A stretch of 64,000 nucleotides of DNA, from NCBI GenBank assembly GCA_963665295.1, contig OY762209.1, positions 3,648,001 to 3,712,000 of the forward strand, given 5' to 3'. The DNA is from Syntrophorhabdaceae bacterium (lineage in GTDB: Bacteria; Desulfobacterota; Syntrophorhabdia; Syntrophorhabdales; Syntrophorhabdaceae). The notes under the pieces are model-generated. The model was not told the origin of the DNA and made no database searches. It worked only from the letters and a program-made list of their open reading frames with translations. A program made the translations under genes and the position numbers. Of this stretch, positions 52,039 to 64,000 are shown in pieces (position 1 is the first letter of the stretch; every line of letters begins with the position of its first letter).

Positions 52039-52085
52039 AGCCGACGATGGGATTCGAACCCGCGGCCTGCTCATTACGAGTGAGC
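52039..52085 (-). other. 3' half of tRNA-Thr(CGT): prophage attachment site
   Basis: GCTCA-CTCGTAA-TGAGC anticodon arm, GGTTCGAATCC T arm, CGTCGGCT acceptor strand; D arm and 5' strand absent; 10 bp from the integrase stop. Confidence 0.88.
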
Positions 52086-52095
52086 CTGAATATTG

Positions 52096-53217
52096 TCAGT
52101 TGTCCTTATTATCATCGATAGTTACAAGCGTGAGATTTCCCCGTGGGTGCATTTTGGGTGCAGTGTGAAAATGTTCTTCTACTGCGTTGCCTAGCTTCTC
52201 CATCTGCTCCTGCATATGCCCGGGGAGAAGATGCCGATAGATTTCAGTCACCTTTTTGTCCTTCTGTCCGAGAATAACCCCTATAGTGTCGAGAGAGACT
52301 CCCTCCATTGCGAGGTAAGAGGCTGCCGTGTGCCGGAGGTCATGGAGCCTGATGGGTTTCATCCCCGCGCCTATGATGCATTTGTGGAACTTCCGGGTAA
52401 CTGTGTCTTTAGACCTCCACTTAGGGAAGACATAACCCTTTTTCGTTCGTTTCAAGCCCGACAGCAACTCTTGTATTGCCTCAGAGATCATAACGACCCG
52501 TTGTTCCTTATTTTTTGTGGCGAGAATCACGATGTAGTTTTGCTTCACTTCCGGCCATTTGAGAGCTACCAGTTCTGCCCGCCTACAACCGGTTATGATG
52601 TAGAGGAGAACCATTGCGCGGAAGTCGGGGTCTTTGATCGCATCAAACATCTTGGGAAACTCGTCAGGCTCCAGAAACCGGGGCAATTTCTTTACCCCCT
52701 TAATAAGAACTTTTCCTCTTCCTTTCTTATCGTACGGGTTGCGCTCCAGGTAGCCCCATTCTACGGCCTTGTTGAACGCCGCACGGAGGCGCCTGATGTA
52801 GGTGTTCAACGTCTCCACGGACCTCTTTGCCTTGAGTATTTTGGCGTTGAAGTCGTCGAGGTCTTTCACGGTGATGGCTGCAAGTTTCTTGTTGCCTATG
52901 CGGTCAATGAAGGTCCGTAAGGATAATTCATCGGATCGTATCGAGTCCGGGGCCTTCTTCATTTCCTCGGACCATTTCTTATAATCTTCCTTAAACACCT
53001 TGAGCGTTATGTCGTTTTTGACGGTGGGTAATCCAAGAAGTTTCTCCCGGAGGATCTCCTCCTTCATGGCGGCGAACAAGTGATTGGCTTTCGTGAGGTT
53101 CTTGGTCTTGAGGGACTTTTTCTTCCCGCGCCCCAACTCAACATAGTAGATTCCGGTATCCTCGCGACGGTATAACCTCATATTGTCTATTGTATAGGTG
53201 TCAATCAAGCGTGTCAA
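52096..53217 (-). CDS. int: Tyrosine recombinase / phage integrase
   Basis: TGCRRAE, KNK, HDLRH, LGQ (usual His replaced by Gln), TEIY. Confidence 0.93.
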   Translation of the reverse strand: MTRLIDTYTIDNMRLYRREDTGIYYVELGRGKKKSLKTKNLTKANHLFAAMKEEILREKLLGLPTVKNDITLKVFKEDYKKWSEEMKKAPDSIRSDELSLRTFIDRIGNKKLAAITVKDLDDFNAKILKAKRSVETLNTYIRRLRAAFNKAVEWGYLERNPYDKKGRGKVLIKGVKKLPRFLEPDEFPKMFDAIKDPDFRAMVLLYIITGCRRAELVALKWPEVKQNYIVILATKNKEQRVVMISEAIQELLSGLKRTKKGYVFPKWRSKDTVTRKFHKCIIGAGMKPIRLHDLRHTAASYLAMEGVSLDTIGVILGQKDKKVTEIYRHLLPGHMQEQMEKLGNAVEEHFHTAPKMHPRGNLTLVTIDDNKDN

Positions 53218-53220
53218 AGT

Positions 53221-53457
53221 TTATTTTCTCCCCGATCTCATGCTCGCAAGGATACTCCTTGCTTCTTCCCTGTAATTCACCACGCCCGCCAATTGATAGC
53301 GGTCTATCGATTCGCGGTCTATACGCCATTTGCCTTCTTTCTTCGCGACGAAATCACCCGAAGCGATGTGTTGCATTATGGTGGTCCGGGACATCGATGC
53401 ATATCGGCTGGCCTGGGAAACGGATAACCAACGGGGGGTAATGTCTGTCATATTCAT
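53221..53457 (-). CDS. xis: Excisionase-like HTH protein
   Basis: WLSVSQASRY..SRTTI...GKWRIDRESID; immediately upstream of the integrase. Confidence 0.82.
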   Translation of the reverse strand: MNMTDITPRWLSVSQASRYASMSRTTIMQHIASGDFVAKKEGKWRIDRESIDRYQLAGVVNYREEARSILASMRSGRK

Positions 53458-53459
53458 AT

Positions 53460-53624
53460 TTATTCTCCAATCTCCCTCAAATTAGGGCTCTCGCACCATT
53501 CAGGTATTGCCATTGGGTTAATATTTCGTTTCCTTTCATCTCTTGCGCAGTAATGGACCTGTCCGTCCTGATTCCACTTAAGGTCACGACAGATGCAGCA
53601 ACTTATAAAGACCAGGGCTTTCAT
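53460..53624 (-). CDS. Small Cys-rich phage protein
   Basis: ATGA-coupled start; CCIC..YC..IPEWC. Confidence 0.6.
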   Translation of the reverse strand: MKALVFISCCICRDLKWNQDGQVHYCARDERKRNINPMAIPEWCESPNLREIGE

Positions 53625-54139
53625 ATATCCCCTTTCATACTCGCCTGTACCTCTGAAAATGATTTCCATCCCCTTTCCGTGAGCTCTGTCGTATAGACCT
53701 CCTTCCTCGGTAGCAGCGGCACCCAGTGCTCATCACAGAAGAGTCGGTAATGCCATACGTCGTTCTTCTTCCCCTCCCCATAATACGGAGGCTCAACCCA
53801 TATCCTTCGTTGATCCTCGGGGGAGAAAAAGGCGTCCAGCCATAACTTGCTGAGCTTCTCATCCTTTGGCAGAAGGCTGCCACTCAAGGGTTCCCGGAAT
53901 GAAAGGGACAAGTGCCAGCACCGCTCATAGTCGGGGTTCTTCCACCATCCACCCGTGTGATAACCGATATCCCTGGTAAAGATGATGATGGTTCCCGTGG
54001 CGCTGTGTTGCGCCGTGCAGTGATTGATTAGCTTCTTATTCTCGGGAGTGTCCGTGCCGCCGAAGAAACCGTGTTTTGCCCTACGATACATCTCGCGGGC
54101 GACCATGGAAGGTAATTCGTGGTGGTCAAAAATGATCAT
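53621..54139 (-). CDS. Phage hypothetical protein
   Basis: ATGA-coupled at both ends; CWHLSLS and VWHYRL motifs. Confidence 0.7.
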   Translation of the reverse strand: MIIFDHHELPSMVAREMYRRAKHGFFGGTDTPENKKLINHCTAQHSATGTIIIFTRDIGYHTGGWWKNPDYERCWHLSLSFREPLSGSLLPKDEKLSKLWLDAFFSPEDQRRIWVEPPYYGEGKKNDVWHYRLFCDEHWVPLLPRKEVYTTELTERGWKSFSEVQASMKGDI

Positions 54140-54744
54140 TCGGCCCTCCCGAACCCGATCCCCCAGTTCCACGGGTTCTGTCCCTTCACCTTTGGGTTCA
54201 GCGCGTAGAAGTAGTCAAGGAACTCCTGGCGACTCTGGAAGCCTTCTCTGTGGGCATCATCCGTCGTGATGTCCAATAGACGTTCCACCTTGGTGTCGGT
54301 GCGGATGAGGTTGTCTATGCGGCTATAACGTCTCTTTAGGAAAAACGATGATTTCCATTTCCCGAAGGCGGGGTAGCTGTCGAGGCTCCATGTGGCTGGG
54401 CATTCCGCCAATATGCCTTCTGTGCCGATGTAGTATGCCTTGTTATCTGCTCTGTAAGCGATAAGAGGAGCGCCATACTCATCGCATGTCTCGGCCCAGG
54501 TTTCTTTCACCCAGAGTGTGTCGCCTTCCATGCCGTATGGACATTTTACGATCCTGCAATATCCGTTGGGTTTACAAAAGAGGGCTTCCAAAACGCCATT
54601 AACAGGCGACAAGCTTATCAATCTCCAGTCGCCCGGGGCCTCATTGATCTCCTTCAGCCCCCTCGTCCTTCTGGTCATATCTTTCAGGTCCTTCTGTATG
54701 CCTACCACCATGGGACCGCTCATGAGTATTGGAATATCCTTCAT
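54136..54744 (-). CDS. Phage ASCH/PUA-like domain protein
   Basis: PILMSGPMV..K.MTRR, CPYG..GD.LWVKETW, VERL.DI...DA..EG, NPW.W.I.F. Confidence 0.72.
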   Translation of the reverse strand: MKDIPILMSGPMVVGIQKDLKDMTRRTRGLKEINEAPGDWRLISLSPVNGVLEALFCKPNGYCRIVKCPYGMEGDTLWVKETWAETCDEYGAPLIAYRADNKAYYIGTEGILAECPATWSLDSYPAFGKWKSSFFLKRRYSRIDNLIRTDTKVERLLDITTDDAHREGFQSRQEFLDYFYALNPKVKGQNPWNWGIGFGRAE

Positions 54745-55670
54745 TGCACCCTCCAGGCCAGTTCCCTATATTCGCTGCCGTCGAGGAGATGACCGGCTCT
54801 GTTCTGGCCGACACGGTACATGGCTTCCTTGCCGAATAGAACCATATCTCTATCCTCCACAATGCCTTTTCCGGCTGGCCACCACTCCCCCCACTGTTTG
54901 AAATAGAAGGCTGTTCCTGCCGCCGCACATTGATCTCTATCCGATCTGAAAACATCTGGATGGGAAGGGCGGGCTTTTGATGATGTCTCGCCTCCAGAAA
55001 CCACGCCCAACACGCGCTTTAGATCGTCTCCATAATCAATGATGCCTAAACCCGGTTCGTGAGAAATCCACAGCTTTCCAGGTATGGACAAGAAGGAGCC
55101 CTTCTTTTTGCCCCACTCGGGTTGATTGCAGACGGTAAGGCCGAGCCACAGGTTAGGGAACGGCCAGGAATCCGAGATTATGGTCCGTTTACCATCTTTT
55201 CCGAAGTTCTTCTCTGAAGTGGTGATTGCGTAGTACTGGTCACAGTGGTATTGGATGGCGCCCGCTCTTGACGTCCATTCATCTCGCGGAGCCGTAATGT
55301 ACCTCAGCGCCCTATCAGGTCTTTTTGTGAGGGCTACGAAAGTGTGATGCTTTGCCATCGCAATGACAGCAAATATGGCATCCCTGAATTCATCGGACAC
55401 CCCTTCATGCCACAGGTCGCCCATGAATTGGACGCCGATGATGGAAGGCTTCCTTAGTTTGAGCGGTGTGAGCAGTTCTGGTTCCTTAAGGACGAAACCT
55501 TCTTGGCCGCCGTATGCTAGCCGCTCGTTGATGCCTATTGTGGGGCTCTTGCTTAGCCGTTCGCACATTCTCAGGTGCCAGCAGTTCTCGCACCCGGGTG
55601 AACACTGCGTACACCTCATGGCGACCGGATTCCAAGTGTGTGTCAAATACTCAATCCCTGTTTTCTGCAT
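54741..55670 (-). CDS. DUF5131 (phage Gp37/Gp68) family protein
   Basis: IEY..HTWNP..CTQCSPGCENC, MGDLWHE, LTKRP, S.EP.LG, GGET, FKQWG; AGGAGG RBS. Confidence 0.88.
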   Translation of the reverse strand: MQKTGIEYLTHTWNPVAMRCTQCSPGCENCWHLRMCERLSKSPTIGINERLAYGGQEGFVLKEPELLTPLKLRKPSIIGVQFMGDLWHEGVSDEFRDAIFAVIAMAKHHTFVALTKRPDRALRYITAPRDEWTSRAGAIQYHCDQYYAITTSEKNFGKDGKRTIISDSWPFPNLWLGLTVCNQPEWGKKKGSFLSIPGKLWISHEPGLGIIDYGDDLKRVLGVVSGGETSSKARPSHPDVFRSDRDQCAAAGTAFYFKQWGEWWPAGKGIVEDRDMVLFGKEAMYRVGQNRAGHLLDGSEYRELAWRVQ

Positions 55671-55753
55671 AAGGGGGTAGCCTCCTTTACTTGACAAATT
55701 GGTACTGAAAATACGTTTTACTTGACATCGATACCGATGGAGCCCAAGGCTTG

Positions 55754-56125
55754 TCAATCCTCTCCAGGTATCCTCGCAATGATAGCCCGCGCCTTTTCAC
55801 GCCAAGCGTGAACACGTGAACCTCCGCCGCACCCGCTTTCGTTGAGTGCCTCTTTCAATATTGCCAGCAACTCAGGCGCAGCCGTTATGAGATCGACATC
55901 ACACTCCGAATTAAACCCGAACCTATCAGCGCCACCATCAAGGTGTGGAACGGCGCGGCGCGAGCCCTGGAATACTTGCGCAATCAGGACCCTGCCATTG
56001 GGATGCTTGGATTCGATATGTTTGGGTCCATATACATAATGTCCGTCCCTAACCCATGGTCCCGGTGTGGGTTTCATGCACGGCGCCCACTCTTCTGTTC
56101 CCGTCTTCTTCGTCTCAATTGGCAC
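55754..56125 (-). CDS. Phage hypothetical protein
   Basis: TPGPW...LI.AAPELL..L signature common in phage early proteins. Confidence 0.72.
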   Translation of the reverse strand: MPIETKKTGTEEWAPCMKPTPGPWVRDGHYVYGPKHIESKHPNGRVLIAQVFQGSRRAVPHLDGGADRFGFNSECDVDLITAAPELLAILKEALNESGCGGGSRVHAWREKARAIIARIPGED

Positions 56126-56630
56126 TGTCCACCCCCGTCTTTTCTTCCAACTCCCCAGGCATTTCCTTGAATTGAAGGTTCCTATGCGCCCCGACCACCG
56201 CGAGTCTGTCCCGTGGGATCGCCATCACCTTCAGTTCCGCCTCCGTAGGATAGACATATTGGACGTTCCGAGCCCTGAGCCGCCGTAAGTATTCGGTGTA
56301 TTCCTCCTCCGTCGAGGGCCGAACTTTAGCGTCTCGTTCCTTGCAACGCTTCAGATATTCTCTATGCTCCTTGCATCTTCCCGGAATGCGCCCGAGACCG
56401 CACTCGCAGGAAGCCGAGGAACCGCCCGAGTGTTTACAATGCGACATGGTGCAGCCCGGGGGCTCAAGGTATCCTATGATCTGCCAAACAAGATTGTTCA
56501 TCTCATGGTCCGCCATGCCTCGCTTTTCCAGGGTATAAAGCAGTTCCTTGATGGACATCTTTTCCGGATCCAGACCTCTGGATTGCAGAGCCTTTTTCAG
56601 TCTTCCAAGCTTCGCGTATGCATTCCACAT
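56115..56630 (-). CDS. Phage hypothetical protein (Cys cluster)
   Basis: Co-oriented, tightly packed ORF; start uncertain. Confidence 0.6.
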   Translation of the reverse strand: MWNAYAKLGRLKKALQSRGLDPEKMSIKELLYTLEKRGMADHEMNNLVWQIIGYLEPPGCTMSHCKHSGGSSASCECGLGRIPGRCKEHREYLKRCKERDAKVRPSTEEEYTEYLRRLRARNVQYVYPTEAELKVMAIPRDRLAVVGAHRNLQFKEMPGELEEKTGVDSAN

Positions 56631-56631
56631 A

Positions 56632-56958
56632 TCAGTCACCCCCGCTTCCCTTTTTCTTCTCGTCCATTTCTTTTGCGACCTCCGCACATACCTCATCCCA
56701 CCGTCTTGACATAAAGGCCTCGCCCAGATCCGTATAAAGCATGTCCAATATCCGTCCGCAGCATTCGTCTACGAGGGGCATACCGAAAAGGGTGCTCAGG
56801 CTGTACCTCTTGTCGCGATCCGTGAGTTCAGGATGGACAGTCCCGCAGACATGACATACCACCTGTTCTCGCGTGCGCGTCGACGTGGTGCACCAATCGA
56901 ACTCTGCCGGACCCGCTGGGGTCTTGACCATCGTTGTTATGTGAGTTACTTTTGACAC
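56632..56958 (-). CDS. Phage hypothetical protein (CxxC...CC)
   Basis: GAGG RBS, GTG start, packed in the operon. Confidence 0.62.
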   Translation of the reverse strand: MSKVTHITTMVKTPAGPAEFDWCTTSTRTREQVVCHVCGTVHPELTDRDKRYSLSTLFGMPLVDECCGRILDMLYTDLGEAFMSRRWDEVCAEVAKEMDEKKKGSGGD

Positions 56959-56969
56959 TTGACCTCCTC

Positions 56970-57437
56970 TCAGGGCATAAGCGCGGGCAACAATGCCGGC
57001 ATTATCCCGATCTCATACGCCTGCTTTATCTGCGGTTTCATCCATGACCCAACGGTCTGTCCATCAGGCAAGACAATGTGCGCCATAAACTCGTCTTCGA
57101 AGACCGTGATTCCCGATTCCACGGCTTCCAACTTGGCCTTAATGACCAGGGCCAGGGCGCGCCAGCGTTGTCGCAGCGCCTGTTCATAGGCTTCATTGGC
57201 TGCCTTTTCTGTTCTCAATGTGTCACGATTTGGGGTGTGCGTGAATTCCCGCAGGTCCCTATCAGGCAAGGGAAGTATGAACTTTACACGCCGGCCTTGC
57301 ATCTCGAAGGCGATTACGGCCGATGAAGCTTGCCAGCCATAAAGGAAGCCTTGCGCGCCATACTTGGTCAGGATACGCTCTATCTCATTGCGGGATTTTT
57401 CAGAACTTACCGTAGTTGACTCGGCATATTTCATCAA
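56970..57437 (-). CDS. Conserved phage hypothetical protein
   Basis: YA..T.VS.EKSR.EIE..L..YGA, RQRWRALALVIKAKLEAV.SGI..FE.EF. Confidence 0.78.
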   Translation of the reverse strand: MMKYAESTTVSSEKSRNEIERILTKYGAQGFLYGWQASSAVIAFEMQGRRVKFILPLPDRDLREFTHTPNRDTLRTEKAANEAYEQALRQRWRALALVIKAKLEAVESGITVFEDEFMAHIVLPDGQTVGSWMKPQIKQAYEIGIMPALLPALMP

Positions 57438-57446
57438 GTGCTCTCC

Positions 57447-57815
57447 TTATCGATAAAGCTTGTACTGTGGGTCCGTTAGAAATGTCTTGAATGTCAGGTC
57501 AGGGCAACAGTCCAGCAGCGATAAGAAACTGTTGTACCGCTTCTTTGCCCTCGATGGCCTTTCTCTATGTTTGGCAACGTAAGCCTTGCCCAGGTCAGTC
57601 ACGCAAAAAACCCTGTCCCCACTCTCGAGGAACCGGGGAGGATCGGCTTCCCGCATCATGCCCACCTCACAGAGACGGAGAAGAGTGGGCATGTCGCTAT
57701 GGTCCTTTCCGGCAACGAAATGATTCCTGTAGGATTCTTCACGGTAAATGTCGGTAAGGCCGAGTGTGTGAAGCATGATGGCAAAATCCGCATTTCTTAT
57801 GGTTATCTTTGGCAT
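57447..57815 (-). CDS. Phage hypothetical protein
   Basis: H.LG..YRNHFV..F.VT..G pattern; AAGGAG RBS. Confidence 0.68.
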   Translation of the reverse strand: MPKITIRNADFAIMLHTLGLTDIYREESYRNHFVAGKDHSDMPTLLRLCEVGMMREADPPRFLESGDRVFCVTDLGKAYVAKHRERPSRAKKRYNSFLSLLDCCPDLTFKTFLTDPQYKLYR

Positions 57816-58684
57816 GAGGACTCCTTAAATAGCGGCATAGTCTTCTCTTCACTCCCATGCCGGTAATCTTCATACGGTATGTGTTCCAGCCATCTGAGCC
57901 GGGAGTAATAACGCACCATGTCCTGCAGCTCTTTCTCAGTCCATCCCGGCGCCACATAGTCGTTTTTGGTCCGGCATTTAAGAGGTTGATATCTCATGGG
58001 CGTGGGCCTGATCTTAAGCGACCGTACCCACTCCAGCTTCTCTCGGGCCTTCGCTGGCGTATCGTCGTAGCCTATGAGGACATAGACGCCTATATCCGTC
58101 ATCCCCTCCGCCCTGGTACGCAAGACCGCATTAAAGACGTCTCCCTGATCGGCCATGGTGTCCAGGGAGAACCGGACCTTCACAGCCTTCAACTCTGCGA
58201 TCCTCTCAGCGTGATGTGAGGTAAACAAACTCGCGTCGAGGCCCTGGTTGAAATCTACAAATGGAAGAGATTTCAACCGGTCAATCACCCTATCGAAGTG
58301 CTTCTCGCTTGCAGCAAGGAGGTTGTTGTCGGATATCAAGGGACGGGTCTCCCAGTCCGTCAATTCCTTCAGGTCGCCCTCTATTTTGGGAACCGCACAG
58401 AAGGGACAGTTGTTGGGGCACCCGCGAGTAGTGAAGGTGGCCAAGGGGTTATGGAAGGCAAGGACCGGGAAATCAGTGTGGCTCAAACTGTCCCTTGTAG
58501 GTACGTGGATTCCAACCGGGAGAGCATCCACGTTATTGACGACCGCAGGTCCTCCCATGATGACCTTTTTCTTGGATGCCTCGGCAATCCTGGCCGCCTC
58601 TGGAATGTCCCAGGAAAAGACCACGGAGATATACAGGGTATCCCTTATGGTCCACTGCACTATGCCCTTGCTCCAGTTATACAT
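57803..58684 (-). CDS. Phage radical SAM protein
   Basis: TTRGCPNNCPFC (CxxxCxxC), DNNLLA, DFNQGLDA, VYVLIGY. Confidence 0.88.
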   Translation of the reverse strand: MYNWSKGIVQWTIRDTLYISVVFSWDIPEAARIAEASKKKVIMGGPAVVNNVDALPVGIHVPTRDSLSHTDFPVLAFHNPLATFTTRGCPNNCPFCAVPKIEGDLKELTDWETRPLISDNNLLAASEKHFDRVIDRLKSLPFVDFNQGLDASLFTSHHAERIAELKAVKVRFSLDTMADQGDVFNAVLRTRAEGMTDIGVYVLIGYDDTPAKAREKLEWVRSLKIRPTPMRYQPLKCRTKNDYVAPGWTEKELQDMVRYYSRLRWLEHIPYEDYRHGSEEKTMPLFKESSCQR

Positions 58685-58991
58685 GCCCCCCCCCTTTCCT
58701 TCTTCTCCGCTGCCAATCTCTCCGCTTCCTTTCGATCCCATATGACCCAAAAAGGCACCCAGGCTTCCTTAAGGAGGTAATGTTCTTCTCCGCAGTCGAC
58801 GCATTTAAAAGTGATGTGCCCGATGTACTCGGTGGGTACGGTCCTGCCTTTGGATTCGTGCCCGTCTCCGCGACAAACTGGACAAACGAAGAGGCGGCAG
58901 GAAATCGCCTCGGTAGGGGAGACTCCCAGGACCAGGTGCAGATTGGGCAATTTTCGGGATGGCATTCAAGGTTCTGATTAGACGGAGTCAC
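58660..58991 (-). CDS. Small Cys-rich phage protein, frame ambiguous
   Basis: Two open frames (58677-58991 and 58660-58965); the latter has CPVC..CVDC. Confidence 0.5.
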
Positions 58992-60325
58992 TTAATCACC
59001 CCCGCCGTCAGCAAAGGTGCATCTCCCTCTATTCGTTTCCTGGCCATGTCGCAATATGTGGGGTTGAGGTCTATACCTATGAAGTTTCTGTTGAGGCGAT
59101 TCGCTACGAGCCCGACCGTTCCAGCGCCGAAGAATGGGTCGAGCACTGCCCCCCCCTCTGGACAACCGGCAAGGATGCATGGTTCTACGAGGGCTGGGGG
59201 GAAGGTGGCAAAATGGGCGTCAGGGAATGGCATTGTTCCGATGGTCCATACAGTGCGCCTGTTCCTTTTCGTGCCTTCCCATGGAACGGATCCTGCAACG
59301 GCACCTGCCGACTTCCCCCCGTCGTCAACTGGGACGCCTCTCAGGCTTGCCGCTTTGCGTTCTTTATTTCCTGATTTTGCTAGGTATCCTGTCTTTCCGG
59401 CCTCTCTGCCCTCTCGATGAAAGGACCCGTGTCCGCCACTACCTTGCGAGGTATCCCAGCCATCGGGGGTCTTCCACCGTGAACCTGTTTGCTTTGGTTG
59501 GCCGGGGGCTTGATAGGGCATGCCTGTAAGATCATGCCAGTTCGTAGCGGTCACCGGTTCCTTGATGGCATCTTGGTCATAGTAATACCTTTCGCTTTTG
59601 CTCATGAGAAATAGATACTCATGCGACTTTGTTGGCCTGTCCGTAACCGACTCGGGCATAGGGTTAGGCTTATGCCAAATGATGTCTGAACGGAGATACC
59701 AGCCGTCGGCCTGAAGGGCGAATGCGACCCTCCAAGGTATGCCCACGAGGTCTTTGGGTTTAAGTCCAGGAAGGGGCATTCGGTTAGGCTGGATCATCGG
59801 CCCTATCGCGGCCGCTTTGGGATCAGGCCCATGCGTCCCTCGGAAGCCAAATGCTCCTTCACGCCATTTCTTACCCTGATCTCCCCCACCAGGGCAGTTG
59901 CCTACCTTGCCCGCCCCGGTTGCGTAACTGTCTCCCAGGTTAAGCCACAACGTCCCGTCCTTCCTCAAGACTCTGTGGAGTACCTGGAATATCTCTACCG
60001 TGTGCTCAACATAGAGTTCGGGCGTAGGTTCCAGCCCATAGGAACCAAGCCATGCACCGCAATGCGCACAGAAGCCGGGCTGGAGGCCGCCTCGCGCGAA
60101 CCATCCGTCCCGATCTCGACGGAAGGATGTTCCGGTACCGTTTCCGTTTGGGGAGATTGTTTCTGCCCACTCGTGTTGGCAGTCTGGATTCCCACCCCAT
60201 ATCTGAGGATCAAGACCATAATCGCGAAGGCCCCAGTAGGGAGGGCTCGTGACGATACAGTTTACTGATTCAGATGGAATAGTTCTCAGGGCGGTGAGCA
60301 CATGCCCGTGAATTATCCTGTTCAT
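58988..60325 (-). CDS. Beta-class amino (N4C/N6A) DNA methyltransferase
   Basis: VTSPPYW catalytic motif near the N-terminus, IIWHKPNPMP, HFATFP, VLDPFFGAGT SAM motif near the C-terminus. Confidence 0.93.
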   Translation of the reverse strand: MNRIIHGHVLTALRTIPSESVNCIVTSPPYWGLRDYGLDPQIWGGNPDCQHEWAETISPNGNGTGTSFRRDRDGWFARGGLQPGFCAHCGAWLGSYGLEPTPELYVEHTVEIFQVLHRVLRKDGTLWLNLGDSYATGAGKVGNCPGGGDQGKKWREGAFGFRGTHGPDPKAAAIGPMIQPNRMPLPGLKPKDLVGIPWRVAFALQADGWYLRSDIIWHKPNPMPESVTDRPTKSHEYLFLMSKSERYYYDQDAIKEPVTATNWHDLTGMPYQAPGQPKQTGSRWKTPDGWDTSQGSGGHGSFHREGREAGKTGYLAKSGNKERKAASLRGVPVDDGGKSAGAVAGSVPWEGTKRNRRTVWTIGTMPFPDAHFATFPPALVEPCILAGCPEGGAVLDPFFGAGTVGLVANRLNRNFIGIDLNPTYCDMARKRIEGDAPLLTAGVIK

Positions 60326-60332
60326 GTTTGCG

Positions 60333-61478
60333 CTATGCCCGATTGAAATCACTTGTCAGAATCCTCCATGCTGTTGCAGCCACTCTTGAAACCTGTCCGT
60401 TTCCAATGGCCTTAAGTCGGTCCACCCTAAAGGCCACCCCATGAGCCACTCGACCCACGTCGGGTTCAACTGGCCACCCAAAGACGCCTGATCCCGTAAG
60501 GGCTTTCCCCTGGTATGTTTCATCCTCTTCAACCCCGCTTCCGTCGCTCCGTACCCAGTCCGATAATCCGTAGTCGAGGGCGTGGCCCATTGCCGCGCTA
60601 CCGTCGTCGCCAGGTCGTCTCCGCCCGATCCTTCCCGGTTCATCCGGGCAAAGTCCGGACCGCTCGGTGATCCCTTCGGCGTCGGCCACATCACTTGCGC
60701 CGACAGATGCAGTCCTCCTTTGCTGCCCCTTGCGTTCGGTCCACCGTGGGTTGCTTCCGTTGCCGACGGGGTTCTCCATAAGGGTCTTCCCAACCTCGCC
60801 GCTTCTCCCAAGCTGTTCGGCCCACATTTCCTGTTGGCCCCAAGTTGCTTCGATTCTGGGGAAAGATTTGGCGTAGGCCAGTATCCATACCCGTTTTCGC
60901 CTGTGCGGCGCTCCGCAATCATCAGCTCCGAGCACACACCACCGAGCATCGTACCCGCTTTCGGCCAAGTCTCCAAGAACTCGTCCGAAGTAGGATGGTA
61001 AGGTAATTTGTACTTCGTGAGCCGCACGGATTGATGCCCATTCTTCGGCTTCATATACTCGGCCTTCATCAACGGCTTCATATAGAGTCTTTCGCTCGGG
61101 AGAAAGGAGCCCTGGGACGTTTTCCAGCCAGACGACGTGCGGTCGTATAATGCGTACGGCTTCGATTGTTGGCGGCCACATGTTCCGTTCATCAGCCTCC
61201 CCCCCCCGCTTGCCTGCGACGCTAAAGGGCTGACAAGGGAAACCGGCAACGATAAGATCAACCATTCCCGTATATGCTCCGGCGTAACCTCCTGAGATGA
61301 ATTCTCGGACGTCTCCGAAGACAGGGGCGGCATGAAGAAAACCGTCTGCGATTCTTTGTCTGATAACTTTTTGGCAGTATGGTTCATAGTCGACATACCC
61401 GCGGCATTTGAAACCGAGAAGGTGCTGCATCGCGAGATCGCCACCGCCCGCTCCGGAGAAGAGAGACAGGTAGTTCAC
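60333..61478 (-). CDS. C5-cytosine DNA methyltransferase, alpha polypeptide (lacks motif IX)
   Basis: Motifs I (LFSGAGG), IV (GFPCQ), VI (ENVPG), VIII (PHRRKRVWI), X (RLKAIGN). Confidence 0.92.
   Translation of the reverse strand: MNYLSLFSGAGGGDLAMQHLLGFKCRGYVDYEPYCQKVIRQRIADGFLHAAPVFGDVREFISGGYAGAYTGMVDLIVAGFPCQPFSVAGKRGGEADERNMWPPTIEAVRIIRPHVVWLENVPGLLSPERKTLYEAVDEGRVYEAEEWASIRAAHEVQITLPSYFGRVLGDLAESGYDARWCVLGADDCGAPHRRKRVWILAYAKSFPRIEATWGQQEMWAEQLGRSGEVGKTLMENPVGNGSNPRWTERKGQQRRTASVGASDVADAEGITERSGLCPDEPGRIGRRRPGDDGSAAMGHALDYGLSDWVRSDGSGVEEDETYQGKALTGSGVFGWPVEPDVGRVAHGVAFRVDRLKAIGNGQVSRVAATAWRILTSDFNRA
60356..61444 (-). CDS. Nested alternative-frame beta polypeptide of the C5 methyltransferase (true start unknown)
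   Basis: 362 open codons inside the alpha gene on the same strand; four WxTP repeats and motif IX-like QLNPTWVEWLMGWPLGWTD. Confidence 0.75.
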   Translation of the reverse strand: MAISRCSTFSVSNAAGMSTMNHTAKKLSDKESQTVFFMPPLSSETSENSSQEVTPEHIREWLILSLPVSLVSPLASQASGGGRLMNGTCGRQQSKPYALYDRTSSGWKTSQGSFLPSERLYMKPLMKAEYMKPKNGHQSVRLTKYKLPYHPTSDEFLETWPKAGTMLGGVCSELMIAERRTGENGYGYWPTPNLSPESKQLGANRKCGPNSLGEAARLGRPLWRTPSATEATHGGPNARGSKGGLHLSAQVMWPTPKGSPSGPDFARMNREGSGGDDLATTVARQWATPSTTDYRTGYGATEAGLKRMKHTRGKPLRDQASLGGQLNPTWVEWLMGWPLGWTDLRPLETDRFQEWLQQHGGF

Positions 61479-61481
61479 TTG

Positions 61482-62069
61482 TCACTCCCCCACCGGCAAT
61501 GCCTTTATCTTGTTCTGCGCGATGGCGACCAGAAAGCCCTCGGCCTTCTCAGGCTCATCAAATATCGCGTGGAGCCGGGCAAAGAGAAGATCAATCTGTT
61601 TCTCTATTTCTCTCAAAGCCATCCATTTTTCATGGGAATAGGCGGTCACGTAATCAAGCGTGCCCGGGGGGCTCTCATGCGAGATGCCCGCGGATCCCTC
61701 TAGCTCGTCGTCTAAACTGTGATTCGTTGGATGAACGGCCCCCTTGGGCAGAAAATTACGGTATATCCATTTGTCATCCTTCCCTTTGGCTCTGAACGCC
61801 CTATGATAGCGCAGATCATTGTCCCATCGTTCTCCTGACCAGTTCGACACAACGATGATTGCCTCGAACTTGAGCGCGTGGCAGGCGTTGAAGTGGTCCA
61901 CGGCCTTTTTTTCAAGGTCCACATATGCTTTATCTTCAAACCGTATGTTGTCATAAAGAACTTTGAAGTAAACCCCTCTGTCGTAGCTGTCAACAACATA
62001 TGCTTGTAAAAGCGTCTTGTCGGGAAGGATTATTGTCTTAAACTTCTTCTGTCCTGGTCTGCCGCCCAT
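61482..62069 (-). CDS. Phage hypothetical protein
   Basis: 195-aa ORF packed within 1-3 nt of its neighbours. Confidence 0.7.
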   Translation of the reverse strand: MGGRPGQKKFKTIILPDKTLLQAYVVDSYDRGVYFKVLYDNIRFEDKAYVDLEKKAVDHFNACHALKFEAIIVVSNWSGERWDNDLRYHRAFRAKGKDDKWIYRNFLPKGAVHPTNHSLDDELEGSAGISHESPPGTLDYVTAYSHEKWMALREIEKQIDLLFARLHAIFDEPEKAEGFLVAIAQNKIKALPVGE

Positions 62070-62070
62070 A

Positions 62071-63531
62071 TTATTCCCCCACCGCCTTACTCATCATAGG
62101 CTGTCCCCCGGGCCCCTTGCACGTATCAGCCTTCAGATAAACCGCGCTGCATACGGCCGCACACTGAGGTTCGCACACTGCGCAGCAAGGCGGCCGGTCT
62201 TTCGGGCTTCCCCACACGCATTTTTCTCTGATGTGGTCACACAAAGTGGTCTCGTCAAACGGGGTCTTCCGGCTTTTCGTCTTCTTTTGAGAGACTTTGG
62301 GGGCGGGCGCTTCGGCCTCCGGGAGGTCCATTATCAGCTTGATAGCCGCGTCGATCTTGGCGATGGTCTTATCGAGTAACTTGCTGTTGCTCGGGTCATC
62401 TTCTTTATCCTCGTCTTTGACATAAAACGCTCTCGCCTCTTTCAGCCCCGCAATAGTTGCCGCGTCTTTGGTGGCATAACCCTGATTACGTATGTTGGGC
62501 GCATAGCCCCTTCCGGCGTAGTCCCCGTACCCCTTTTGGACGCTGGTTGAAAACCGGTATAGGCCGTCCGGCGCGAGCGCGATCCTTATTTCCGTCGCGG
62601 TCTTGTCAACCTTAGTGGTCGTTACTGTAACCGTTTCCGGGTTTATCAACACACCGGCATCATTCACAGAGGAAGGGCCTTCGGTCACTGCTGCCTCTAC
62701 CTCCGCGGCGGTTTCAACTGTCTCAAGGGCCGCAGTCTCCGGCTCCTGTATAGTGTCCGCACTGGGCTCTGCCGCGCCTGTACCCCTCGGTGTCCTTTCT
62801 CCGAAATGAATAACCTGAAGGGTCTCATTGATCTTGCAAATTGCCTCGTCAACAAATTCTTCCTGTGTTGCCGTGAGCTTTCCGCTGTCAAGCTGGTCAA
62901 GGTACCATTCGCGGGCAATGTTTAGCCCTGCTATCTCCGCTTCTTCTACGCTGCCGAACCGAGGGCCGTTTATGTGGGGTTCGATTGCATGTCCTTTGCC
63001 TAGCCCTTCAAGGTACAGCCCGTACCGATATTGCCCGTCATGAGCCAGGGCGACCGTAACGATTGTCTTGCAGCCGTCAACTTCAGTTTCGGTCACGGTG
63101 AGACTCGCACAGGTCGTGACGAGCACGCCGAACTCGTTTACTTCCGACACCACTTCGGCGTCGATAACTTCAGCGTCCCCCGCGGTAATCGCAGGAAGCG
63201 CGGGGCCTATCATCTTCATCTCGGGACGTTCCGGTTCAGGGGGTTTTTCGGTAGGCGCAGGCTGGGGGGCTTCTGCCTTTTTCGAAAAGAGATCGTCTTG
63301 AGCCTCTCTGACCGTCCGGTGAAAAGCGTTCTTGATCCGGTCCGTCACGAAATTGATGGATGTCTCGACTTCTATGTCTCCATCGGCAGGCTTGAACTTC
63401 AAGCCGAGCGCAATGCTCAGAGCGCCGTCTTCTTTGAGGTATGCCTTGTCTATCTTCTCTCGGTAAATTCTGAGGATGTTACCGAGCATTTCCGTTGCTT
63501 CGCTGACTACTTTTTCCGTAATGTTCGACAT
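62071..63531 (-). CDS. Phage protein with internally duplicated ~110-aa domain and Cys-rich tail
   Basis: AGGAGG RBS; repeats at aa 131-241 and 289-400. Confidence 0.75.
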   Translation of the reverse strand: MSNITEKVVSEATEMLGNILRIYREKIDKAYLKEDGALSIALGLKFKPADGDIEVETSINFVTDRIKNAFHRTVREAQDDLFSKKAEAPQPAPTEKPPEPERPEMKMIGPALPAITAGDAEVIDAEVVSEVNEFGVLVTTCASLTVTETEVDGCKTIVTVALAHDGQYRYGLYLEGLGKGHAIEPHINGPRFGSVEEAEIAGLNIAREWYLDQLDSGKLTATQEEFVDEAICKINETLQVIHFGERTPRGTGAAEPSADTIQEPETAALETVETAAEVEAAVTEGPSSVNDAGVLINPETVTVTTTKVDKTATEIRIALAPDGLYRFSTSVQKGYGDYAGRGYAPNIRNQGYATKDAATIAGLKEARAFYVKDEDKEDDPSNSKLLDKTIAKIDAAIKLIMDLPEAEAPAPKVSQKKTKSRKTPFDETTLCDHIREKCVWGSPKDRPPCCAVCEPQCAAVCSAVYLKADTCKGPGGQPMMSKAVGE

Positions 63532-63597
63532 GCTTTATTTCCTCCTCTTTATATTGGGGCCGGCTATCCACTTCGGCCCCGGGTAGCTTATTGCCCC

Positions 63598-63936
63598 TCA
63601 AAACTCGTCTTCATCGTCGTACCCATACCGGCCGCGGTAGTTTTCCTCTTCCACGAGCTTGACGATGGCCTTCTGAGCGGGGTTTCGCTCGGCTTCCGGC
63701 ACCTCCGTGCATATACGCCCCGCTTCAGCCTTCAGACTCTCAGGACTTCGATACATGGCAACGTCGGCGTACATCTTGGCCGTTCTGTACTGCTCAATGG
63801 CGTGGTTCGCGAGCTTCTGCGCGTCCTTGCGCATCTCGTTGATTTCCTTTAAGGTCATCTCCTGATCGCTCGACAAGGCCACTTCGAAGTGGCAATAATT
63901 GTATGACAGCATTACTTTTACGCTTGCCTTTGGCAT
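63598..63936 (-). CDS. Phage hypothetical protein
   Basis: AGGAGG RBS, 112 aa. Confidence 0.72.
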   Translation of the reverse strand: MPKASVKVMLSYNYCHFEVALSSDQEMTLKEINEMRKDAQKLANHAIEQYRTAKMYADVAMYRSPESLKAEAGRICTEVPEAERNPAQKAIVKLVEEENYRGRYGYDDEDEF

Positions 63937-63951
63937 GTCTATATTCCTCCT

Positions 63952-64000
63952 TTATATGAGTCCCTTATCTTCCGCGAGCCACTCGGGGATGACGATGGTG
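63952..64000 (-). CDS. C-terminus of a small phage protein (partial)
   Basis: Manual translation ...TIVIPEWLAEDKGLI*. Confidence 0.6.
   Translation of the reverse strand, partial: TIVIPEWLAEDKGLI

Follow-up and report, generated by a model that had tools for sequence, protein, structure and literature searches.

A prophage gene read in two overlapping frames probably encodes a two-chain DNA C5-methyltransferase

The window, i.e. the whole 64,000-nucleotide stretch of DNA analyzed here, contains on its minus strand a 1.15-kb prophage gene in which two reading frames, alpha and beta, overlap. We assigned the following features (window coordinates):

60333..61478, minus strand: alpha chain with motifs I–VIII, filler, and motif X; 381 aa, GTG start 4 nt past the upstream stop, Shine-Dalgarno (SD) energy −8.4
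60870..61478, minus strand: catalytic large domain of alpha, motifs I–VIII (C82, E119, R194, R196)
60480..60869, minus strand: alpha filler, codons 204–333; residues unconserved, stop-free
60354..60422, minus strand: motif X, alpha frame
60356..61474, minus strand: beta frame (+1), stop to stop; 372 open codons
ATG 61192, minus strand: start of the likely beta CDS (278 aa); alternative start at GTG 61444 (362 aa)
61196..61207, minus strand: SD-like G9-AGG run, 3 nt ahead of beta ATG 61192
60932..60982, minus strand: putative beta association segment around W170, counterpart of W37 in EcoHK31I beta
60779..60880, minus strand: beta module 1 (WPTP, 34 aa)
60689..60778, minus strand: beta module 2 (WRTP, 30 aa)
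60590..60688, minus strand: beta module 3 (WPTP, 33 aa)
60470..60589, minus strand: beta module 4 (WATP, 40 aa)
60419..60469, minus strand: motif IX, beta frame, LNPTWVEWLMGWPLGWT
58988..60352, minus strand: downstream N4/N6 DNA methyltransferase; starts 4 nt past the beta stop, with its SD within the last codons of beta
52066..53217, minus strand: left end of the prophage, with a 20-bp att-like repeat (52066–52085) and a tyrosine integrase (52099–53217)

The alpha chain matches PF00145 (E 2.5e-35, 122.9 bits against a cut-off of 22) as well as phrog_363 (PHROG 363, “DNA methyltransferase”), and its best solved relative is M.HhaI. We labeled its motifs according to the usual nomenclature of C5-methyltransferases (C5-MTases): FSGAGG (I), GFPCQ (IV, with C82), ENV (VI), RRKR (VIII), and KAIGNGQ (X). 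The SAM-binding motif I and the catalytic motifs IV (PC), VI (ENV), and VIII (RxR) are intact, and their residues are invariant across 92 rows. Between motifs VI and VII, the large domain carries a 36-codon insertion that is stop-free in both frames; a comparable insertion is also found in locus L006 and in the single-chain protein P0200. The residues of the variable region are unconserved in alpha, and this filler would be kept free of stops because reading must reach motif X.

Motif IX is found in the beta frame, which has the motif-IX-like stretch QLNPTWVEWLMGWPLGWTD at its end, so that the C5-MTase set of motifs IX and X is complete across the two chains. The beta frame matches phrog_1008 (PHROG 1008, “DNA methyltransferase”) with an E value of 1e-23. 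No match was obtained for beta in Pfam or NCBIfam, nor among solved structures up to E 10, and the ESM Atlas returned unnamed viral clusters only (0.95–0.96), with a recognition value under the mark. The PHROG library lists the alpha and beta families separately, and its entries do not state a nesting or a joint enzyme. A sequence-only reading of this locus had described two frames open on one strand over ∼1.1 kb, a main frame with motifs I, IV, VI, VIII, and X that lacks motif IX and has a filler-like variable region, and a nested frame with a motif-IX-like end. All of these points are borne out by the matches and frame lengths given here. An assembly error was considered and rejected: contigs from two runs of two studies, which may be the window's own source, span the whole stretch unbroken with zero substitutions or indels.

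The gene sits in an early operon of an integrated tailed prophage, with terminase, sheath, and baseplate genes downstream. A second copy of the 20-bp repeat lies ∼80 kb downstream, at a tRNA-Thr. Alpha is the sole C5-MTase match in the genome, and a PADLOC scan of 13 neighbors gave no match to an endonuclease model; one of these neighbors is a second methyltransferase. Judged by these neighbors and by the integrase, att-like repeat, and tail genes, the C5-MTase gene is solitary and located in a prophage, as the sequence-only reading had claimed.

Three further features of the prophage were observed. Over its ∼80 kb (window 52066–64000 and on to contig position ∼3780090), it carries SbcCD-like, contractile-tail, and P1-like head morphogenesis genes. 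The region downstream of the C5 gene (window 54741–60352) encodes the N4/N6 methyltransferase, radical-SAM, and DUF5131 proteins, possibly a wider DNA-modification module. Two of the 21 G/C runs of at least 9 nt in the genome (58686–58694 and 61199–61207) are both situated in the prophage operon.

Selection on the two frames was assessed within this copy and across relatives. When the alpha codons of this copy were resampled synonymously for 200 rounds, the probability of the +1 frame staying open by chance was 0.03, 0.13, 0.025, and 0.135 in the four regions considered. When the beta codons were resampled, the alpha filler remained open in 0 of 200 rounds, with 6.4 stops expected.

A search for relatives with a beta query gave at least 597 in viral contigs, 80 of which were kept; another 20 loci from viral contigs and 15 from genomes came from alpha queries. 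In the resulting set of 115 loci, 80 of which came from the beta query and in which related loci are not independent, automatic motif patterns identified 102 as nested with both frames stop-free (counting L073, which has a frameshift near motif I). The other 13 comprise two split loci, one locus with a stop before motif X, one canonical monomer, and nine unclassified loci; judged by ORF bounds, seven of these nine are nested, one is cut by the contig end, and one is a rearranged fusion. Both frames are open in 33 of the 35 loci found by alpha alone, which are not independent since several are near-identical; the remaining two are a split locus and a canonical monomer. The two split loci of the tally, in which motif X moved to beta, serve as a natural control: their alpha filler contains 6 and 11 stops. 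Separately, L012 carries one TGA in alpha right before motif X (L012:2419–2421), where relatives have arginine, which may be a mutation or a sequencing error.

For a comparison of observed and expected stops, we combined 103 loci with the window and removed seven genes without the motif I pattern and three split ones; the remaining 94 were de-duplicated to 85 genes. This set is filtered for nesting and thereby favors openness, which makes the unfiltered tally of 115 loci the fairer measure. In the 85 genes, a shuffle test found the +1 frame free of stops over motifs V–VIII (218 expected) and in the variable region (135 expected), with 51 stops over motifs I–IV (178 expected). Likewise, the alpha frame has no stops in the variable region of these genes, with 454 expected. 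Across 261 modules, chosen by their beta motif and thus with first and second codon positions fixed by construction, the third positions of beta are nearly free (0.1–0.4 bits at P, T, and P), and the overlying alpha residues scatter. In the variable region, it is beta and not alpha that is conserved. By these sequence comparisons, the two-frame layout is under selection, and the stop avoidance that the sequence-only reading had proposed to look for in the nested frame of homologs is present.

The start signals of beta were compared in the same 85 genes. An ATG in the beta frame lies ahead of motif I in 68 of them, and 57 show a pair of start codons 4 nt apart, in most cases behind a single SD 4–5 nt ahead of the first one. 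This copy has ACT in place of the beta ATG that most relatives have at +5. The SD before ATG 61192 (−10.5 kcal/mol) is the strongest of the candidate beta starts, with a spacing of just 3 nt; GTG 61444 scores −6.2. Locus L084 has stops up to the ATG equivalent to 61192 and a clear SD at that ATG. ATG 61192 is thus most likely the beta start in this copy, as far as its sequence signals indicate. The gap of 4 nt between the beta stop and the next gene equals the gap between the upstream gene and alpha, as would be expected if beta were a true operon member, and beta is probably translated.

The missing +5 start could also mean that this copy is in decay after the loss, or that the second frame is a mere by-product of the alpha codons, and the dominance of alpha in the conservation over motifs I–VIII would suit either case. 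Both are hard to reconcile, however, with the depletion of stops, the third-position freedom dictated by beta, the intact catalytic residues, and the alternative SD and ATG, such as L084 has to rely on, and we regard them as extremely improbable.

A different route to beta would be its expression mainly as an alpha–beta fusion, by +1 frameshifting or by slippage on the G9 run, with motif X provided in trans by full-length alpha. The G9 run at 61199–61207 is one of the 21 G/C runs counted above, and fusions of this type exist among database proteins: alpha is joined to beta after motif III in P0099, P0115, and P0182; after motif IV in P0037, P0149, P0126, P0175, and P0136; and after motif VIII, without motif X, in P0221. 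(These switching proteins, known from protein records alone, are natural re-splits or assembly indels.) Yet the G run is unconserved in relatives and reads as an SD ahead of an in-frame ATG, a shift at this position would lose motifs VI and VIII, a separate ATG for beta stands at the start of the gene in 68 of the 85 relatives, and the contigs over the stretch contain no indel. In addition, EcoHK31I beta is made from its own start codons (PMC2836561, in part). We consider expression through a fusion unlikely, in line with the sequence-only reading, which had placed a +1 frameshift fusion behind two separate chains.

Two chains by separate initiation are indeed known from M.EcoHK31I of Escherichia coli (YGGCCR), an alpha/beta C5-MTase (Lee, Kam and Shaw 1995, via PMC2836561 and PMC3404938, both in part). 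There, alpha without the beta starts gave no protection, and activity drops from beta deletion 37 onward (PMC2836561, in part). The TRD of this enzyme was assigned to alpha (PMC2836561 and PMC3404938, in part). A published primer led us to 81 E. coli loci, among which L110 is an M.EcoHK31I allele. It encodes an alpha chain of 309 aa and, at +1, a beta chain of 176 aa with M17 and M26, agreeing with the available text of PMC2836561, and adjoins a NotI-family endonuclease. By comparison, pECO29 (L108) was rejected as a nested enzyme; it is a monomer with many +1 stops.

As in L110, beta of the prophage gene is nested in the same +1 phase, with motifs I–VIII and X in alpha and motif IX in beta, which agrees with the EcoHK31I-like two-chain layout proposed by the sequence-only reading. 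Motif IX shares 7 of 17 residues with EcoHK31I beta in a gapless alignment, and the distance from motif IX to motif X is 41 nt in L110 versus 35 nt here (35 nt in 75 of the 76 family genes measured). Against the beta profile, the beta chain of the allele reaches 15 bits (single-sequence E 4e-7), compared with 3 bits for the +1 frame of M.Eco29kI. Residues 37–50 of L110 beta align with the W170 segment, a likeness that may partly come from alpha motifs VII–VIII, and W170 itself aligns with residue 37, the onset of activity loss (PMC2836561, in part). A W-x-x-x-G-x-M-type segment is common to both enzymes and is needed for association in M.EcoHK31I, according to the available part of the published work. 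If ATG 61192 is used, beta would also start near alpha codon 100, as in M.EcoHK31I.

In contrast to M.EcoHK31I, the prophage gene has no cognate endonuclease among its neighbors. Whereas the TRD of M.EcoHK31I lies in alpha, the variable region of alpha is filler here and selected modules are found in beta, which contains four WPTP modules where EcoHK31I beta has none. Moreover, the open beta frame spans almost the entire gene, and in most relatives beta starts at +5. The prophage enzyme would work like M.EcoHK31I but departs from it in the TRD-in-alpha and R-M features.

Other C5-MTases resemble the prophage gene in different respects. M.AquI (CYCGRG) consists of two polypeptides and, by its description, carries motifs I–VIII on one chain and the distal variable region with motif IX on the other (PMC3404938, in part). 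According to the same partial description, its motif X is on the small chain, as in L006, L114, Drake94, and DaVinci, whereas motif X is in alpha here. Within the family, motifs IX and X are both in beta in L006, L114, Drake94 gp76/75, and DaVinci gp87/86, and two Streptomyces loci (L126 and L127) have motif IX directly ahead of motif X in alpha and the modules alone in +1. Multispecific C5-MTases with tandem TRDs are known from Bacillus phages. By their description (Trautner et al. as cited in PMC2413257, in part), these are likewise solitary phage enzymes with several PT-type modules of 30–40 residues, variable in number and order, between motifs VIII and IX. They are, however, single chains with a TL motif, whereas TP modules in a second frame are found here (by the same partial description).

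Association of the chains was examined by a complex model of alpha with beta residues 95–372, as the sequence-only reading had suggested. The model scored 0.85, and the best of three controls scored 0.00; of 157 solved complexes, 116 attained the mark for this score, as did 2 of 215 mismatched pairs, and halves of a split enzyme can pass through likeness to solved monomers. At least 47% of the contacts are common to the model runs, with a partner pLDDT of at least 51. Confident contacts connect motif IX with motif X and the helix after motif II, and the W170 segment with the motif VII strand and L125 of alpha; beta M345–W347 pairs with alpha V363–S364, and beta W170 with alpha L125. The modules lie outside the confident interface and fold with low confidence. 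Since the alpha and beta alignments share nucleotides, the position of the 25 best pairs matters: 3 involve shared codons, another 7 are no more than 10 codons away, and the other 15 are distant. The predicted complex supports binding of alpha to beta.

Beta appears to hold more than the motif IX that the sequence-only reading had correctly assigned to it, namely selected modules that fill the TRD slot of single-chain relatives. These WPTP modules comprise 30–40 residues and mostly occur three or four per gene. Among 245 sources enriched for such matches, modules 1–4 of this copy recur in 1, 30, 72, and 6 carriers, respectively, and never are all four together in another source. Modules similar to module 3 are found in mycobacteriophages Drake94 and DaVinci, and the module 4 type takes the last position in 6 of 6 matches. 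By an approximate clustering, which takes in ∼11 false modules from the N-terminal part of beta, ∼76 distinct module arrays are present in the 81 genes considered; among gene pairs with >85% catalytic identity, one in two has no module type in common.

Six database proteins (P0125, P0147, P0168, P0167, P0200, and P0130), known from protein records alone and each possibly the result of an assembly indel, contain motifs I–VIII, modules, motif IX, and motif X on a single chain. Because these proteins carry the modules between motifs VIII and IX, the modules appear to occupy the TRD slot. For TRDs, the consensus P(STCA)PT(ILV) has been published (PMC2413257, in part). The residue after PT in 276 modules is P (263), L (8), or M (5), where the consensus has I, L, or V; with the consensus not matched, the TRD role of the modules rests on position and likeness. 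When folded alone, the last two modules with motif IX gave a pTM of 0.19. In P0200, good predicted folding is confined to the large domain and motif X (best match M.HhaI, Z 21.9, rmsd 2.4, 197 aligned), and most of the module sequence has a pLDDT <50. From their place in the chain, we infer that the WPTP modules of beta fill the target-recognition position.

Alternatively, alpha might be active alone, and beta might be a genuine protein with a function of its own in DNA binding or regulation. This would be compatible with the lack of beta matches in Pfam, NCBIfam, or solved structures and with folding that did not confirm a TRD role of beta. It would leave alpha, however, as an enzyme without motif IX and with an unconserved variable region; the content of beta is found inside single-chain methyltransferases, and EcoHK31I alpha without the beta starts did not protect (PMC2836561, in part). 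Independent activity of alpha is very unlikely in our view.

It is highly probable that the gene encodes a two-chain solitary phage DNA C5-MTase, whose two polypeptides arise by separate initiation on one mRNA. Initiating separately, alpha and beta would be made side by side and would assemble into one C5-MTase. Alpha would supply the SAM-binding and catalytic domain (motifs I–VIII), followed by unselected filler and motif X. Beta, read at +1, would contribute an association segment and, at the place of the TRD, four WPTP modules; its motif IX would pack on motif X of alpha. The beta chain would start at ATG 61192 behind the G-rich SD in this copy, and 4 nt past the alpha start codon in most relatives. 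The assembled enzyme would be active as a C5-MTase. Orphan methyltransferases of phages generally serve against restriction, and the likely role of the enzyme would be 5mC marking of phage DNA against host restriction.

Each WPTP module may further be an independent recognition unit, which would make the enzyme a multispecific two-chain MTase with a specificity cassette shuffled in a hidden frame; we give this extension slightly less than an even chance. It would explain the four layouts observed, i.e. single chain, or only modules, modules with IX, or modules with IX and X in beta. With both frames held open, single indels could move motif IX, motif X, or the cassette between the chains without killing the enzyme.

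The sequence-only reading had taken the nested architecture to be rare, but it is instead what is usual in a large phage family, to judge from the tally of 115 loci. It had also expected gene callers to see one protein. This holds for the RefSeq and PLSDB records examined, whereas metagenome callers call beta, and split forms carry two gene annotations. Records from Ralstonia, Paenibacillus, Salmonella, Leptospira, Nostoc, and Lacticaseibacillus (L104, L105, L106, L107, L128, and L129) contain nested +1 frames with modules, in each case under a single protein annotation. The literature searched, which leaves most subscription papers outside, does not describe the nested phage family. Nor is a nested phage layout described in the available parts of PMC3711429, PMC4991695, PMC4982276, and 10.1101/2024.07.15.603628; the HNH that PMC11855218 (in part) reports out of frame within a phage methylase is a case of another kind.

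Some relatives show further rearrangements. In Burkholderia phage vB_E253 (L103:1147–3267), the beta frame forms the beginning of a protein annotated as “chromosome partitioning protein,” and the alpha frame is unannotated. In L004 (1938–2863), an in-frame fusion links the beta frame with the beginning of an upstream gene, presumably of an adenine-methyltransferase-like family, and the N-terminal half of alpha is missing. In P0071, a beta chain, the N-terminal part is interrupted by a LAGLIDADG-like domain (PF00961).

Compared with M.EcoHK31I, the prophage gene differs in having its recognition modules apparently in beta, in the absence of an endonuclease, and in a layout that is common rather than rare: the nested design has been demonstrated in a single E. 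coli enzyme, and here many phage genes have it. If the two-chain reading is true, a supposed oddity of one E. coli enzyme would be routine in phages across many phyla, and current annotations would point at the wrong frame for DNA recognition. Specificity prediction and cloning would then fail, because the annotated frame is the wrong one and codon optimization would destroy beta. The family would offer, within a single enzyme, a series of split points made by nature together with a library of short exchangeable modules, and both the origin of overlapping genes and a module-to-target code would thereby become directly testable.
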